Source: Paecilomyces variotii
Taxonomy: Eukaryota
DNA: 52,678 nucleotides
Assembly: GCA_004022145.1 (NCBI GenBank)
Contig: RCNU01000012.1
Direction: 5' to 3' (one strand)
The notes beneath the pieces were generated by a model that worked only from the letters and a program-made list of their open reading frames with translations, did no database searches and had not been told where the DNA came from. The translations under genes were made by a program, and so were the position numbers. The first letter of the stretch is position 1; each line of letters begins with the position of its first letter. Positions 1 to 9,600 of this stretch are shown here, piece by piece.

Positions 1-579
1 TGTGGCTGACAGCGGGATCTCCAAGCCACACCGCGGCACATCCCGCTGTCAACTGTAGATATGGTAGTTACTACTTAGCGCTTGTAATCAGCCCTCAGTT
101 GAACGTCGGCTCTGAACGCCAATAAGTGAAGAAAATGGAAGTATCCCATTCATAGACCATTCATTCCTACATATGTCACTACATGGTACCGGGAATTGGA
201 GGAACTTGTGTGAATAGACCCGTTCAACCCCGCAATAGCTGCTTGTGCCGGAATGAATACATAAACCATGATTGTCAGACGTAGAATCGTTCTTTCTCTG
301 CAAAGCAGCTGGCCATTGATGTCCGCACCTGCAGTTTGTATTCATATCCTGCGGATACTTTGTTCCCGAGTTCTCAAGGACGGTGTGCTACAGAGCGCCT
401 GGCTGATAGCCTTACTTACGGGCTGAACCTTCCTCGTGGATTCGATCTAGCATGGTGATCTCCATAGCAAAGCCGTAATGTTAAATAGAGTAGTCAATCT
501 TCCTTACTCGAGAATCTCTTCAAGTTCTTTATGGCACACAAACATCCACAGAGAGAGCAACAGCAACAGCAGAAATAAC

Positions 580-985
580 ATGTTGTTCCTTTTATTCATT
601 TTTACTGGGTCGGCGGCCCCCACGCCGACGGCCCACAATGCCACGGCGACACGCTCAAAATCGGCTACCTCCGAATCCGTGTCCGCCTCGGCGGGCGGTG
701 CGTCATTCCAGTACTGGGGGTAAGTACTCTTCCTTCCCTAACTTATGGGCATTGATAAATATTTATTAATATATGATTAGCTCTGCGTCTCTGTACACGA
801 GGCACGTATTCGCCTCTGCTGGGGCGATCATCGTCCTAGCGATCGGCCTCGCCGTAGCATGGCGATTGTATGTACTTGATTCTTCACTTCTCCAGTATTG
901 GTACTGATTGATTGTTTCTAGGGCGGGCTTGCCCCCAATCAGCCAGTGGAACTTGTGGTACTTAATTGCCCTTCGATGTTGGTGA
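580..985 (+). CDS. Small membrane protein, copy 1 of a tandem pair (3 exons: 580-719, 781-867, 922-985; ~96 aa)
   Basis: ATG at 580 followed by a hydrophobic leader (MLFLLFIFTGSAAP) and a Ser/Thr/Ala-rich stretch. GTAAGT..TAG (720-780) and GTATGT..CTGAT..TAG (868-921) introns splice in frame to a TM helix (HVFASAGAIIVLAIGLAVAWR). Exon structure is corroborated by the adjacent paralogue. The 3' end is uncertain because a third intron may start at 958. Confidence 0.6.
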
Positions 986-1104
986 CACAAAATTTAAATA
1001 CTTTGGGTACGCTCCCCTCCCTGATAGACACACACGCACAGATATACCCGTATAGAGAACGAGAAAGAGAAAGAGAAAGAAACCACTAACAGTAACAGGA
1101 AAAC

Positions 1105-1721
1105 ATATTGCTCTTTCTTCTCCTAGCCACTCCATCGGGCGCTATGCCTACAGCGCCAAAGTGTCCACCTCTGCGTCTCCAGGAGACGCGACGATTTCAT
1201 ATTTTTGGGTAAGTTACTCTTCCTTCCTTCCCTAGATTATAAGCATTAATAAATATTAACTAATATATAATCAGGCCGACAAACAAATCTGTCGCTCATA
1301 TCTTCGCATTCGCGGCAAGCCTAGTAATAATGTTAGTAGGCGCAGCAGTGGCGTTCCGAATGTATGTACTCCGTACTTGATTCTTCACTTCTCAAGTACC
1401 GGTACTGATTGATTGTTTCTAGGATGCGCTTGCCCCTAATCAGCTATGAGAACGTGTGGTACTTAATTGCCCTAAGCTGCTTTATATATCCAGTACTAGT
1501 ACTAACTAGGGTTTCTTAGGGCGAGTGTGCGGAGCGTCGGTCGTTGTTGTCGTGGTTGTCTTTGTCGTTGGCGGGGCGGGGGGGCGGGGGGGAAGAAGGA
1601 GGAGACGGGGGGGGACAATCCGGGGACGGGGGGGGCAGAATCCGGGGGAGCCGACGGGGGGGCCGGCGGGGGGGGGGGGATAATGGGGGGGACGAGGATG
1701 GGGGGGCGCAATAGGGGGTAG
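1105..1721 (+). pseudogene. Small membrane protein, copy 2 of the tandem pair; start codon reads ATA (probable RIP hit). Exons 1105-1208, 1275-1361, 1423-1458, probably 1520-1721
   Basis: Same intron phases and near-identical introns as copy 1. Exon 2 has the same 87-nt length and encodes HIFAFAASLVIMLVGAAVAFR. ACATGTTG in copy 1 corresponds to ACATATTG here. A putative third intron 1459-1519 (CTAAC branch) joins in frame to a Cys cluster and Gly-rich tail (RCCRGCLCRWRGGG...). It could still initiate at the in-frame ATG 1144. Confidence 0.5.
1570..1718 (+). repeat. G-rich low-complexity tract with many G runs
   Basis: More than 10 runs of 4 or more G within ~150 bp. Confidence 0.85.
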
Positions 1722-1847
1722 TAGTTAGGTATTATTAATATTATTTATCGGAAGTCGACTAGACGACTCGACCAAAAAGGAGAACTCCTCAGAGGTCTGG
1801 TCCTAGCTGGATCTAACACATTATTCAATTCGCATGTTTTATTGCAC

Positions 1848-2504
1848 CTATAGTCTTTTCTCCAAGTTGATAGAACAGTAATCATAAGCCATAATATCCC
1901 AGGCCCTCTGGTTTCTCTCAAGATCAAGAATCTCCGTAGTATCACGTTGATTTCTTCTTCGCTGACAGCAGATACAGCCTTCTCTGCAATGCATAAATAG
2001 CCCAGGTTTCCTCGACGATTCTCTCTCCCGGTAACAACACCCACAATCATATGCACAACAGCCACCTATGGCTTTACACGCGCGCTGAACTTCTTCTTGT
2101 GTATATGACACGTACCCATTCTGGTATAAATCAAATTCTCGGATGTAAGAGCCTTTGGGTTTGTTAAATAGATGCGAATGGTACTTTTGATTTAGAAACC
2201 ACCATCTTTTGTTATAACTCGCCATCTTCGCTTTATGGCCCTCCAGTTCATTTTTCTCTTCTTCTGTTAGGTCCCCATTGAATTTTTGCCTTTTTTCGAG
2301 TTCGAGCCTCTTTTGGTCGGTTCCAATCTCATATTGAATCATGGCCATCCTTGCAATTTCATTATCCAATTGCCGATTAATCCACTTCTTTTGCGGGCCT
2401 TTGGACCGATAGAAGATCTCGAATATCTTGGCTGTATTTTGTACCTTTACGGCGCTCTCGACACAGCCATGATCAAGGAGGTATTGTTCGATTCTTGCAA
2501 ACAT
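1848..2504 (-). CDS. Hypothetical 218-aa protein with a coiled-coil-like N half and a C-terminal Cys cluster
   Basis: Single-exon ORF. The motif CKAIGGCCAYDCGCCYRER...HCREGCICC resembles a recurrent uncharacterised Eurotiales family (CxxxGGCCxxxCGCC...HCxxxCxCC). Confidence 0.8.
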   Translation of the reverse strand: MFARIEQYLLDHGCVESAVKVQNTAKIFEIFYRSKGPQKKWINRQLDNEIARMAMIQYEIGTDQKRLELEKRQKFNGDLTEEEKNELEGHKAKMASYNKRWWFLNQKYHSHLFNKPKGSYIREFDLYQNGYVSYTQEEVQRACKAIGGCCAYDCGCCYRERESSRKPGLFMHCREGCICCQRRRNQRDTTEILDLERNQRAWDIMAYDYCSINLEKRL

Positions 2505-3082
2505 TTCGCGCGACGTCGGAGACGGTCACGATAGGTAGGCTATACGTGGGATACGAGGGGTCAAGGTATCTGCAAGGACGGCAATCGTTCGCAGCGGGCA
2601 ATACGGAAGATTAGAGGCAACCGAAATCTGTATTGAAGAATGAAAACAAAGAACCCACAATGAGGAATTCTTTGGAGGATGAGACAAGTGCGGGAAGAAG
2701 TGGAAGAAAGGGAAGAATAAATATTCGGTGCAGGCAGCAGTTCTCGTCACATATGTGGCCTAATCCGACTTGAAAATTGGAATTTCGTTGACGACACGAT
2801 GATTTCTGTGGTCTTGATGTAAGTATTTTTCAGTATATGCCATAGACATCCAGGTCAACGCGTCATAGCAGACATATTGTCTATGTGATATCTTGTCCGT
2901 TCAGGCGCGTATATAAGAATTTGCACACTAAAGGTATCCATTAAGATCCATTCTCTATCTCTCTTGCAAGTCCTGGTAAATTCATATGGGGAAGAAGGAA
3001 GGGTCTACTTCTAAGTAGCTGCATCTAATTGTTCAATAGTGTGTATGTATGCAGGAAATATATCCATGTACCTCATAGATTA

Positions 3083-3591: not shown

Positions 3592-5069
3592 ACTGCTAAA
3601 TCTGCTATGGAGGCGTAGGACTTCTTGCGTTCCTTTGCCTTGGTCTCGGTTCGTCTGAACCACCTGATTCCAGACCCTCAGAAAGCTCTCGAAAAGAGGA
3701 AGCAACTATGCCTTATGCCGTGACCTATTGCCATTAAATGCAGGTACAGAGACTCCTGTGAGTCGTGACTCTCTCTAATCATAGCCCACGAGAACATTTG
3801 GGAAAACCCCGGGGGAAAAAGATTGATGAGTGGCTGGTCGTTTGTCATAAGCCGAGGAAGTCAGACTGCTGACGGCCAGTGAGATGGATGATCTTGATTC
3901 GTTGGTCCCTGTGCTCATTCCATCATTGATCTATTCCATCACTAGATCCAGCGGCATCCAGAGCGTGCGCACAGCGGTGTTTTCTTGCATTCTGTGAGAT
4001 TAATGACGAGGAAATATTTATCGTCAGAAATTTCTTGAGCTCAACTACTAAAACATGAGGAATCCGTGAGCTTTGCCGATTGTGCTGTGATACTCCAGTC
4101 AGCGATGCATCATTATATGGCGCTGATTTGACGCCCGGTCATCCGTCGGACAACGCTCCTAAAGAGACTAATGCCCGCCTGGGATTCGCCTTTTACCCCG
4201 GATCTTCCAGCAGCCGCTTCGACAACGACAATGGTCTCGATGCTGGTAGAATCCTCTAAGCACGATGCTTAATTGGGCTGATCTGTCCCCGCCTTTATTC
4301 TCTTTTTGCACCTCCTACTTTTTGGCCACCAATGAATCTCCGACGGTGCTGCAAGTCAAGTGAGCGCCGACGCCACTTCTAAATGATGGCCTCGCAACCT
4401 TTTACGGAACATAACCATGTTGCGCGGGGTTCCTGTTGGTTGTCTTCCAGCTCCATAACATGGTCTCCAATCACCTGTGGGGACCCGGATCTGGGGGTTG
4501 TGATCTGCTGCATTGTTTCCTTTTGTTGCAGCTATCCCCGGTCCATACTCCGAGGTATACTACTACTAGAACGGCTTAACTCTCTGGCTATATCTGCGGC
4601 TCGAGGTGCAATTTTCGGCCACTGCCCTATGTATCTGTCCGTTACGACTTGTGGAATCCACCTGGTCATCATGGACTGTGCAAGGGAGTAGCGCGCCAAC
4701 GCCTAGGGACTGGATAAAGCTAGCAGCCGACTCAATTGGATTGGTTGATCAGAGACATTGTCACCCTCGAGCATCTTGGCATGGATCCTACCAGTCTACG
4801 GTCTGACGTACCGCGGCTCTAGCCAACTTGGATTCGTGAGTTTTGGCCTCTATAATGCATGTGACGCTAGTTCAGCACAGTTCTGGAAGTCTCTGATCGG
4901 CAGTTGGGTATTCAGCTCGCTCTTATAAAGAGTTTGATATCCCCAGTTGTACAGTTATCCGACGCTGACCACTCGTTACTTCATCAACCGAGTCTGTCGT
5001 TTCAAGAGCAACCGGTGTACCCGTCGTCCGTTCCATATTATCATAGACAATTGGCAAGTCAAGAGGAAA

Positions 5070-5836
5070 ATGCAGTTCTCCTATACCTTCATTGCTCTCG
5101 TGGCCGCCGGTCTCGCCAGTGCTCAGTTACCCAACGTGCCGTCCTGCTCCGTAAGACAGCCACCCACCATAACCCTGTTCCGTATCTAACAATCTGTTCA
5201 GCTCAATTGTTTTGTGACGGCTCTCACTACCGATGGCTGCTCAGGCCTGACTGATTTCAATTGCCACTGCCAAAAGACGCAGCTTGTCAGTCAGATCACG
5301 CCCTGTGTCCAGAAGGCTTGTGACGTCGCCGACCAGTCCTGTACGTTATGTACCCTAGTCAGCTCTATAACTAATGCTAACAGTGAAGGATAGCTGTGTC
5401 TAGTGTTGTGGTCTCTCAGTGCTCTGCTGCTGGTCATCCTGTCTCAATTCCTAACCCTGGTGCGGCGTCTTCGACCGGGACTGCCACCACCACTACTACT
5501 GCGGCTGCAACAACCACCTCGGCTGCCTCTCCTACTAGCAGCTCCTCCAGCTCTAGCAGCAGCAGCAGCAGCTCGAGTGCTGCTACCACTTCCACCGCCA
5601 CTGTCACCCCTACGCCTTCGTCTTCTGGCTCATTTGCGACCACGTCCACCCCAGTAGGCTCTTCCATCTCATCAGCTAGTGGGATTGGAGCAACTACTTC
5701 TGCTGGCGCCTCTACTTCTGCTGGCTCATCCACTGCTTCTGCCTCTGCATCACAGTACACCGGCGCTGCTTCTAATGTCAAAGGCAACATGGCCGGTGCC
5801 GCTGCTGTTGCTGCTGTTGCGGCTTACATCTTGTAG
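5070..5836 (+). CDS. GPI-anchored CFEM-domain cell-surface protein (exons 5070-5150, 5202-5340, 5394-5836)
   Basis: Signal peptide MQFSYTFIALVAAGLASAQ. Eight-Cys CFEM: PSCSLNCFVTALTTDGCSGLTDFNCHCQKTQLVSQITPCVQKACDVADQSSVSSVVVSQC. Ser/Thr-rich stalk and C-terminal GPI signal (YTGAASNVKGNMAGAAAVAAVAAYIL). Canonical introns with CTAAC branch points. Confidence 0.95.
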
Positions 5837-6664: not shown

Positions 6665-9600
6665 ATGGGGATCCCTGAGGCACTTCAGCCCCAGGTGTTG
6701 TTGCCGCAGCATCCTTCCGTCCTTGTCAGCCATTTTCACTCGCTTGTCAACGACAATCCTTCTTTGGCGAATATCAATGCGATCAATGACAGTCTTCTTA
6801 ATCTGATACATAGAGAAGCAATTTCCCCTTCCGCATACCGTGTTTGGCTTCCGATTGCTTTGCGACATTCATCACACTTCCTGCCTGCGGCACTGCGTGA
6901 CACCGTTTCTGCAGGCGTGCGCAAATCTGCGATTCGCGTCCTCCGCAGTCTGTTTCATAACCCACGCTGGAAAGTCCAAGGTTGGGACCATCTTGGTGGA
7001 GCTGCGGGAATTAGAGATGTCCTCGACACACTTCCAATTGCCGAAGTGAAGCAATTTGTCGGAGTAATCGCCGGTTACAGCTATTGTTCCAGCAGGGAGC
7101 AGGCTGCAGCATGTTTCGAGGAGTTGTTAGCTTTGGTGGAGAGATCCGAGGATTCGAGTCGCAGATCGCTATCTAAATATATGCGACCATTGCGTGCACA
7201 TTGCAGTCGTCAAAATGTGATTGAGCTATTGGCGTCATCGCCACCAGATCTTGGGCACTTCTTGATTCGCCTTGCCCCGTTGCATACGGATATCCTCCGA
7301 CAGGCGGTGACTGGGACAATCCATATGCCTCTAGAGGTGCGCTTGGAGATTATAATTGTGTGCAACGATGTCCTGATGGGCTCAAAGAACGACTATGTGC
7401 CGAGATACGCCACAGGCAAAGAGTTTCAGTCAGACTTCTCACCGGGGTTTGCATTTAGTATGGACCTCTTGCACGTGTTGGTAACTGAATCTGAGATAAA
7501 GGCAAGAATCAGCGCACATCAGATTCATAAGTGGATTCAATCTACATTGCGTCTTGCCATTGTCAGAAAGCTGCCGCTTGAACACGTCCTGATATTTGTG
7601 AGAGGAAGTTTACCACTATATCGTTCCAAATGCCCCGATTGGCTTATCAACGATATCCCACGAGAGATCATTCGATGGTGGTCTATTGCAAAGGTGGGGA
7701 GCTCTGGAGACTCCGGGTCTAATTCGATCATGGAAAAGGTCCAGCGGAGACACGAACCACGACCGACGGTAGCTCACCAAGAGATACTAAAAAAGTTAGT
7801 GGTCGAAGAAGTGTTGCAGCAAAAAGACGACAAGCTTGACGTGCAGCGGCGCCGGTATGACTTTACGAGAACAGTGGTTGGCCTTCTCTCACTAGTGGGT
7901 AGAGAATGCAGGATTGAGCTTCTTTGGTTGATTTGCAAGCATTCTCCCTTTCTCAATTTCGATATAAGGACAGTAACCCCTTCAGAACGAGAAGTGCAGC
8001 TCGTGCCGGTCTGGGATTATGCTGTTCTACAGAAGCTGCCACCTGGAGATGCGAAGTACTTGTTCAGTCGATCCCTGAGTATCTACCACTGCGATGAGTT
8101 TCTACCCAGTCCTGGTGAGGTGGGACGAGAGCCATGGTCTCTATCATGGAAAGAGCAATGCTTTCTCTGGGCAGACGCAGAGATAGCAACCGCTCAAACA
8201 ATTGATGATCTTGTGATGACCCAGAAATTGATCAACGAGATGAAACAGAAATCAATGCGTCAAAGGGATCACTCAGAACGGCTGGTATGGGCGGAAACAG
8301 CGATACAGGTTGCCGCCAGGACGAAGTCCTTGGAGATTTTCTGCGACATTGTTGACTGGAGCAAGCGCTTTCTACGAGACCCGCTCGTGTTTCCCGGCAT
8401 TATGAATCAAATTCTCTCCAATGGTGGCCGCATTCTCTCCTGTCAGAACGATAAGAAAACCATGAAGGTAGAATCAAAAGCCGACCTTGTGGTCCTTGCA
8501 CAAAAAGCAAACGGACTTCTAATGGATTTACTCAAGACAATATTGCTCTGGCTTCGGGAGCCTGGGGTTCGGCCAAACATGAGAGCAATGAAAACGGTAA
8601 GTAACAAAGTGTTCACCCTCTTATCCAGCACTGTCAACGGTCGCATGGAAGCAGTGAGACAATACACAAAAGGCGATCTCGCCACCGAGTCTGGGTCGGT
8701 GGATATATTGCTCGGGTCACTAGTACCAATCGTCATCGATTACGAGCGTGAAGGCAATTCAGAAGAATACATGGATGTCCTTTGGAGTGGCACGGAAGGA
8801 GTGCTGAGAAATGTCGAATGCCCAGAGAGCCCAAGTTCCGCAGAACTTGCATTTATGGATCGAATCGCACGCAAAAGAGATGAATTTTGGCAGCAGAAAC
8901 GGGTTAATCGCAACCCAGATATTCTTACTTTGGACCAGGGGTTGCCTAAAGGCCTTGCAGTTCAAAATTTAGTTCCTGGTACTACATGGCTTTCCCACAT
9001 CCTGGAACGTCAAAACGAAGCACCTTATGTGTCTTCTAGGGCCAACGAGGTTATTTTCGCACCGGTGGATATCCTCATGGCTGTACCACCAGACGGCGCT
9101 AGACCTGATGGAAAGTTCGTGGATCGGCTTGCAGTTTTGATCCGCGCTTACATGGGACGTGGTAAGAAGCTAGAGAAGGAGAAGCGTATTATGAAAATCT
9201 GGGAGTACTATTCCACGATCCTTCAATCGCGTCTACTGAACCTCAGACTGTTCCAAAATTGGTTGGCCGACCTAGCTCGGAACTCCGGTATGGAAGGGGC
9301 AGCCAACAGAATCCAACCAGACATATCTTTAACATTGAGTATACCTGCCGTATCGGAAATGTTAGTCGAATGGGATCCCTTAGGGGGACTACAGGACGAT
9401 AGCGAGATGTTAACTGGAGAGAATGAGAGCCGTTCACCGCATTCTGGCACCATCCTGAACTCCAGAACTTCATATTTCTTTACCTCCGGCAAGCTGAGAC
9501 TTGGGCCGGAAGCTAAAAAGGAAAACCTGCTTTCAATCTGGAAACTGAGGCGCCAATCCCTGAAAGAGGTGCCTACAGAGTGCTCTACAGCCACTCGTGA

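Follow-up and report, generated by a model that had tools for sequence, protein, structure and literature searches.

How can two introns of a tandemly duplicated gene stay nearly alike while the exon between them differs at most of its sites? The question is raised by a locus near the start of a 52,678-nucleotide (nt) stretch of Paecilomyces variotii DNA (GenBank assembly GCA_004022145.1, contig RCNU01000012.1), the whole of which is referred to here as the window. Two head-to-tail units of a small, predicted membrane-protein gene lie there at approximately 535–972 and 1028–1473 on the + strand and share a three-exon layout. The locus is a mosaic in which an old exon 1 is followed by a young intron 1, an old exon 2, and a young segment comprising intron 2 and exon 3. 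We consider that this mosaic is best explained if old tandem paralogues of an orphan membrane-protein gene have repeatedly undergone short-tract gene conversion with each other, an explanation to which we assign a probability of roughly 0.55. The two copies in the window were compared with each other and with contig haplotypes from two sequencing runs, X13 and X15.

Alike Introns Around an Unlike Exon

The conserved blocks of the two units are spaced 494–501 nt apart on the same strand, identifying them as linked paralogues. Intron 1 of copy 1 (720–780; 61 nt, GTAAGT...CTAAC...TAG) aligns to that of copy 2 (1209–1274; 66 nt) with 52 matches, nine mismatches (seven of them transitions), and a 5-nt length difference. 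Intron 2 of copy 1 (868–921; 54 nt, GTATGT...CTGAT...TAG) differs from its counterpart (1362–1422; 61 nt) by three substitutions, at 893, 898, and 899, and by a 7-nt insertion after GTAT in copy 2, as the gap is placed by MAFFT; under another gap placement identity is 48/54. The splice signals of both copies are of the canonical short fungal type (GTAAGT...TAG/CAG for intron 1, GTATGT...CTGAT...TAG for intron 2). Exon 2, enclosed by these introns, has the same length in both copies (781–867 and 1275–1361; 87 nt each) and an ungapped identity of 34/87, which is above that of shuffled sequences (mean 21.5, standard deviation 3.9; P=0.0016). Taken together, the introns are identical at 100/115 sites versus 34/87 for exon 2 (Fisher P=8.6e-13).

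Each version of exon 2 encodes a transmembrane helix with the fixed residues H-x-F-A...G-x-A-V-A-x-R, and 10/30 residues are identical. Past intron 2, the next 36 nt (922–957 and 1423–1458) are identical at 27 positions and contain six changed codons, all of them non-synonymous; these are followed by a stretch that is identical at 15/15 nt (958–972 and 1459–1473). Both introns are in phase 2 in both copies. The counts reproduce those of an earlier reading of this DNA made from its letters and open frames (the sequence-only reading), which had described approximately nine substitutions in intron 1, three plus a 7-nt insertion in intron 2, approximately 34/87 identity in an exon of unchanged length and retained helix motif, six residue-altering codons, an identical stretch beyond them, and common intron phases. 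Mismatches are also unevenly spread, the longest identical run being 26 nt (P=0.0036 under random scatter of mismatches), and a 23-mer (900–922 and 1401–1423) is identical between the copies. None of three conserved pieces was found beyond these two places in the 52.7-kb window.

Age and Coding Constraint of the Exons

Matches within exon 2 are distributed by codon position, with 13/29 at first, 18/29 at second, and 3/28 at third positions, so that positions 1 and 2 together (31/58) stand well apart from position 3 (Fisher P=1.3e-4). By the Nei–Gojobori method, the proportion of synonymous differences (pS) is 0.96, which is saturated, and that of non-synonymous differences (pN) is 0.47. The loss of nearly all third-position identity, the retention of second positions, and the saturation of pS mean that the divergence of exon 2 is an old coding divergence: both versions have long coded for the helix, and the differences arose neither through repeat-induced point mutation (RIP) nor through recent hypermutation. 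Of the 53 differences, 24 are transitions and 29 transversions. The copy 2 exon is A-rich at third positions, with a GC content there of 0.46 versus 0.68 in copy 1.

The other exons fall on either side of the same divide. Over the first 13 codons of exon 1 synonymous divergence (dS) is 1.08, and over the 17 alignable codons of exon 3 pS is 0.09, the latter with nine non-synonymous changes and one synonymous, too few for a selection test. Since pN of exon 2 is far under pS, purifying constraint on the helix is indicated rather than positive selection. The proposal of the sequence-only reading that old exon variants are kept by balancing or diversifying selection therefore finds no support here, and neither copy of the transmembrane exon has a single substitution between the window and the X13 and X15 haplotypes.

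Differences Between Strains

Contigs of X13 and X15 carry a common haplotype of another strain and cover 350–1613, over which 14 sites in 1264 nt differ from the window. Eight of the 14 lie inside 56 nt (1382–1437) of intron 2 and exon 3 of copy 2 (P<1e-5, 100000 permutations), and with a ninth at 1491 they define a hot spot at 1382–1491 (8/9 in 56 nt). At 1400, 1424, 1425, 1427, and 1437 the copy 2 of the other strain has the letter of copy 1. The clustering of these sites, with five of the eight restoring copy 1 letters, points to ongoing sequence exchange. Three of the strain differences (1382, 1387, and 1400) fall within the 61 nt of copy 2 intron 2, approximately ten times the local background, and this intron is therefore not under tight constraint. 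For the identical 23-mer, no strain difference was reported in the runs covering it.

Further differences concern copy 1. In X15, one contig of depth 88 has a G added after 800, which would shift the frame of the transmembrane exon and is missing from X13; either the allele is broken or the assembly is wrong here. Exon 1 of copy 1 holds 4/14 strain differences within 75 nt, at 635, 657, 705, and 709, two non-synonymous and two synonymous, making 635–709 a second small hot spot; at 705 and 709, the two sites checked by hand alignment, there is no shift toward copy 2.

The Gene, Its Predicted Protein, and Its Expression

When the open frame containing copy 1 exon 1 was used as a query, a single protein match was obtained, the 96-amino acid (aa) 'hypothetical protein DTO212C5_8212 [Paecilomyces variotii]' (P0001), at 96% identity. 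Joining 580–719, 781–867, and 922–985 yields P0001 save two residues, and the predicted exon/intron borders of copy 1 are those of the existing gene prediction. The three-exon model of copy 1 thus corresponds to an annotated P. variotii gene, itself a prediction and not proof of expression, and in this sense the earlier claim of two copies of a small spliced membrane-protein gene holds, with splicing predicted. P0001 would begin with a hydrophobic N-terminus, continue through a short stretch rich in Ser and Thr and a single transmembrane helix, and finish in a short aromatic tail. A CA/AG-rich leader (540–579), homologous to 1065–1104 upstream of copy 2 (28 matches, eight mismatches, and eight gap columns), precedes exon 1 (580–719), which contains the start codon, the hydrophobic N-terminus, and a Ser/Thr/Ala-rich stretch before ending in phase 2. 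The helix of exon 2 is predicted from Kyte–Doolittle values above 1.6 in windows starting at residues 53–64. In exon 3 (922–985) the annotated frame runs through the identical 15-mer, which is coding here (W-Y-L-I-A-L), to a TGA at 983–985; the spliced translation ends like P0001, and homology to copy 2 stops at 972.

Copy 2 has ATA (1105–1107) at the position of the copy 1 ATG, its first in-frame ATG being at 1144–1146. Alignment to copy 1 delimits its exon 1 at 1105–1208, ending in phase 2 and carrying a net 37-nt deletion with a compensating 1-nt insertion. The spliced frame is open over 98 codons (shuffles without a stop, P=0.009), and no stop-free stretch in copy 2 reaches 40 aa. In a read-through model based on the spliced frame and its hydropathy, exon 3 (1423–1519) would end at a TAG (1517–1519) and encode a second hydrophobic stretch. 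A single two-helix gene splicing copy 1 into exon 1 of copy 2 was rejected on hand reading, the frames being incompatible.

No relative of the protein was recovered. Pfam returned no family at E<=1; a HMMER search of 1.84 billion representatives returned P0001 itself and two unrelated low-complexity matches; a word-based search of 5.8 billion indexed proteins gave only P0001 itself among 32 candidates; and an Atlas search gave no usable match. The two additional matches of the HMMER search (P0002 and P0003) are unrelated proteins that matched on low-complexity or hydrophobic stretches. Metagenome scans yielded no match to an exact 21-mer of intron 2 and, with P0001, 596 pattern matches of which none was confirmed. 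AlphaFold2 modeled P0001 alone with a mean predicted local distance difference test score of 61, as a low-confidence helix-coil-helix with helices at residues 2–9, 40–76, and 84–95. Literature on P. variotii and gene conversion held nothing on this locus, no search having been aimed at the gene itself. With no family member found, and with copy 2 devoid of a homologous ATG, the role in allorecognition, receptor evasion, or killer/antidote systems that had been suggested for the two units is not supported.

Transcript data were sought in the same runs and two others. In the complementary DNA (cDNA)-type metatranscriptome runs X17 and X19, no contig lay over 554–1726, a gap in coverage that carries no evidential weight; in the 'RNA' run X15 the region is spanned by one unspliced 13.8-kb contig that behaves like DNA; and no splice joint was reported in either unit. 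A 360-nt contig of X17 covers 350–549, extends upstream of 350, and ends approximately 30 nt before the copy 1 ATG in a fold-back artefact, representing transcript or DNA over the upstream region and not over the units.

Short-Tract Conversion as a Candidate Mechanism

Starting from the direct observations of an old/young mosaic, a coding signature, and clustered strain differences, the following history can be proposed. A species-restricted orphan gene would have been duplicated in tandem long ago, leaving a fragment of a third unit between the copies. Exons 1 and 2 of the two copies would then have diverged for a very long time while still encoding the same kind of helix, and two short patches would have been repeatedly re-synchronised by non-allelic gene conversion, a process that may be ongoing within the species. 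The first patch would be intron 1; the second would begin ~17 nt before the end of exon 2, take in all of intron 2, and extend 15 nt past the 36-nt segment. That the patches end at exon borders could reflect exons now too dissimilar for pairing, and selection keeping the two proteins different may contribute. The sequence-only reading had offered introns that are homogenised by gene conversion or that act as recombination anchors; it is the element of exchange that best fits the data, in which exon 2 has a pS of 0.96 while the introns differ by 6–15%, exon 3 has a pS of 0.09, and strain changes are clustered. Conversion is favored over a function of the introns because intron 2 varies within the species and because neither an RNA family match nor a stable structure was obtained, as detailed below.

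Several observations weigh against this explanation. At 1382, 1387, and 1428 it is only the copy 2 of the window that matches copy 1, and the ninth site of the hot spot, 1491, lies beyond the homology between the copies. With three sites opposite in direction and one outside the homology, copy 1 was not the sole donor, and a further source is required, whether a third paralogue or a haplotype that diverged long ago. The candidate islands, at only 61 and ~120 nt, are smaller and more sharply bounded than is usual and end at or close to splice sites; in the case of intron 1 the borders are both splice sites themselves. The evidence is drawn from one species, as the window and the X13/X15 haplotypes; the runs read for transcripts (X15, X17, and X19) gave no RNA evidence for expression or splicing; and P0001 is the single annotated protein for the gene. 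The absence of a homologous start in copy 2, together with the extra G in exon 2 of copy 1, may mean that the genes are dispensable or decaying.

Alternative Explanations

An exchange of exons rather than of introns could also produce the mosaic. A unit belonging to a larger, unseen family might have been recently duplicated or homogenised, after which exons 1 and 2 of one copy were replaced from a diverged member with breakpoints in the conserved introns. On this view, which comes close to that of the sequence-only reading, the introns would act as anchors for recombination and so allow transmembrane exons to be shuffled. Such a history would account for old segments alternating with young ones and for the placing of their borders at or close to splice sites, and the donor besides copy 1 that is demanded by the tract at 1382–1491 would come from the same family, of which traces do exist. 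By local alignment, the spacer at 991–1022 (+) is similar to the junction of exon 1 and intron 1 in each copy (P=0.0025 and 0.0020) and appears to be a relic of a third unit, in which an exon 1 ends in phase 2 before GTACGC and the CT-rich beginning of an intron; the residues before the GT are K-F-K-Y-F-G, compared with S-F-Q-Y-W-G in copy 1 and R-F-H-I-F-G in copy 2. An X15 contig additionally carries, at another locus, a 92% relative of 972–1022 and after it a sequence that looks like the 3' end of intron 1. However, when a third full unit was sought on either side of the pair and elsewhere in the window, nothing rose clearly above shuffles save an intron-2-like sequence at 1489–1524, the conserved blocks have no further copy in the window, no related protein was found among the 1.84 billion representatives or the 5.8 billion word-indexed proteins, and the transmembrane exons do not differ between the window and X13/X15. 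The likeness of introns among members that have otherwise diverged would still need explaining. We regard exon exchange as unlikely; a larger family with shuffled exons, if true, would be of wider interest. These findings also bear on the outcome that the sequence-only reading had set against its own proposal, a one-off old duplicate with exons invariant across strains and no further members: there are indeed no strain substitutions in exon 2 and no annotated family, but recurrent exchange and the traces of a third unit speak for more than that.

Purifying selection could alternatively have acted on the introns themselves, for instance if they contain an element for splicing or regulation or encode a small RNA, while the exons drifted. 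The conservation of intron 1 is bounded by its splice sites as such a function would predict, and the 23-mer shared by the copies shows no reported strain difference where covered. Variation at 3/61 sites of copy 2 intron 2, some ten times the local background, is hard to reconcile with constraint, and searches for an RNA gave nothing: Rfam had no match at gathering score in the whole window, none at E<=5 for the conserved blocks in 1–3000, and only three sub-threshold, chance-level matches elsewhere in 1–3000. Folds of the intron blocks on both strands were in 6/6 cases no better than shuffles, with z-scores of -0.87 to +0.28; the three intron 1 folds ranged from -0.27 to -0.05 (-0.05 for 720–780), and intron 2, folded only together with exon 3, spanned the full -0.87 to +0.28. 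Introns of 54–66 nt are too short for a small nucleolar RNA, which makes that class unlikely here. Nor would a function of the introns account for the synonymous likeness of exon 3 (pS 0.09). We consider intron constraint improbable.

An equally doubtful proposition is that the locus is decaying or non-functional, neither unit being a working gene and the pattern having arisen by historical chance from a few conversions, selection playing no part. The ATA that replaces ATG in copy 2, the extra G after 800 in exon 2 of copy 1 in X15, and the calling of the gene in the annotation of one strain only would all be in keeping with it, as would the lack of cDNA contigs over 554–1726 in two runs, were that not an absence of cover rather than evidence. 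Against it, codon position 2 contrasts with position 3, and copy 2 keeps its frame open over 98 codons; together these show long coding constraint in both lineages.

At a similarly low level of probability, this fungus, in which RIP is active, might harbor a hidden family of orphan mini-genes whose conserved introns act as recombination anchors, with patches short enough to escape RIP allowing transmembrane-exon cassettes and tails to be swapped between loci and strains, perhaps onto a shared 3' exon. If true, this would constitute a small modular exon-shuffling system for diversifying a membrane protein.

A shared 3' exon has also been considered in its own right, with the two units as variable cassettes whose 15-mer serves as splice donor to an exon from 1520, in the manner of clustered variable-exon genes. 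The 15/15 identity does begin with GT in both copies, and in copy 2 it is followed by a well-formed intron end (TACTAAC...TAG) related to intron 2. The alternative third intron so defined (1459–1519, +), with a GTACTT donor, a TACTAAC branch site, and a TAG acceptor, aligns to intron 2 at 36 of 61 columns (0/500 shuffles as good) and would link the 36-nt exon to a G-rich tract from 1520; by hand reading, either donor joined to 1520 keeps the frame open. The donor, however, is weak, having no G at +5, and because every + frame is open in the G-rich tract, openness is no evidence for the intron. The lengths of the G runs differ between strains, and the annotated model ends at 983–985. The third intron that had been proposed earlier gains some support from its intron-2-like sequence and its perfect TACTAAC and TAG, but not from its donor or from the open frames downstream; a shared 3' exon seems very unlikely. 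The tract itself, at 1560–1720, contains runs of 7–12 G and is open in all three + frames and in one Pro-rich - frame; X15 has an extra G after 1577 and one contig that skips 1606–1718, so that its length is variable between strains or it is hard to assemble.

RIP acting on the GC-rich exons of a recent duplicate while sparing AT-rich introns can be dismissed as the main cause, given that 29/53 exon 2 differences are transversions whereas the changes made by RIP are confined to C>T and G>A, and that third positions are identical at 3/28 with many C/A changes, although it may have added a few changes, being active in P. variotii according to PMC6300479 and apparent in a 31-kb RIP-type block of the window, with 8/27 conserved-block differences of the CpA>TpA type and ATG>ATA likewise.

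Genomic Surroundings

The first 21 kb of the window are ordinary fungal nuclear DNA (GC 0.38–0.51) and the remainder is a 19%-GC block. This 31-kb block (21500–52678; 17–22% GC) has typical RIP indices, with TpA/ApT of ~1.4 and (CpA+TpG)/(ApC+GpT) of ~0.2. The lack of RNA genes at Rfam gathering scores means that it is not mitochondrial DNA, and the block agrees with the bipartite genome that has been described for P. variotii.

The neighborhood of the two units consists of unnamed genes. Just downstream, at 1749–1826, lies a short dispersed repeat: contigs from each of the four runs, dozens in all, match this 50–75-nt piece alone and then continue into unlike sequence. It probably represents a mobile-element end or a miniature inverted-repeat transposable element. 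A 218-aa Cys-rich open reading frame (1848–2504, -) and an uninterrupted one of 1655 aa (6665–11632, +) had no Pfam match. Open reading frame pieces at 4947–5836 (+) resemble a single spliced gene whose start is like a signal peptide and which goes on with a segment containing Cys and a long stretch rich in Ser, Thr, and Ala before a hydrophobic C-terminus, a layout that we read as that of a putative glycosylphosphatidylinositol-type wall protein; the last piece (5396–5836), the sole piece scanned, gave no Pfam match.

Comparison With Known Systems

Three systems offer partial parallels. The wtf meiotic-driver genes of Schizosaccharomyces pombe are small spliced membrane-protein genes reshaped by non-allelic conversion, and the present units are like them in being lineage-restricted, small, and intron-bearing, in their predicted membrane location, and in their mosaic of exchange between copies. 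They are unlike them in sharing no sequence similarity (Pfam, HMMER), in having one transmembrane helix where wtf proteins have several, and in giving no evidence of two transcripts, drive, or toxicity. Introner-like elements of fungi are near-identical introns multiplied across genes. Here too, a fungal genome has near-identical introns of spliceosomal type in more than one place, but they lie at homologous positions and phases of paralogues and not in unrelated genes, only two copies are present in 52.7 kb (2/2 matches being paralogous), and they are 54–66 nt long with no stable fold.

The closest likeness in pattern is to the primate X-linked L/M (long- and middle-wavelength) opsins, tandem paralogues whose central exons are kept apart and in which exon divergence significantly exceeds that of flanking introns (PMC3213168; PMC3924837). 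In gibbons, the introns of the L/M opsins are described as homogenised by gene conversion while the exons are kept apart (PMC3213168), and the pattern is treated theoretically by the 'peak of divergence' model of Teshima and Innan (PMC3924837); the explanation given combines recurrent intron conversion with a barrier in the exons. The corresponding features at the P. variotii locus are intron differences at 15/115 sites as against a pS of 0.96 for exon 2 and a dS of 1.08 for exon 1, and, as marks of conversion tracts, the run length of identical sites (P=0.0036) and the eight strain differences in 56 nt, five restoring copy 1 letters and three opposite. The scale is different: introns of the opsin genes span kilobases and their exons are separated by a few per cent of divergence at known tuning sites, whereas the islands here measure 61 and ~120 nt, the intervening exon is saturated at synonymous sites, and the protein is an orphan.

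The process is thus already known, and the locus is a new example of it, distinct in its small scale and in its degree. It is a very compact natural case of introns younger than the exon between them, and it occurs in a fungus for which PMC6300479 describes active RIP, reports no recent duplications, and considers duplicates to be suppressed. That patches of 60–120 nt should still be exchangeable between paralogues counsels caution in the dating of duplicates from their introns, and the gene pair provides a tractable case for studying the function of tiny lineage-restricted membrane proteins.

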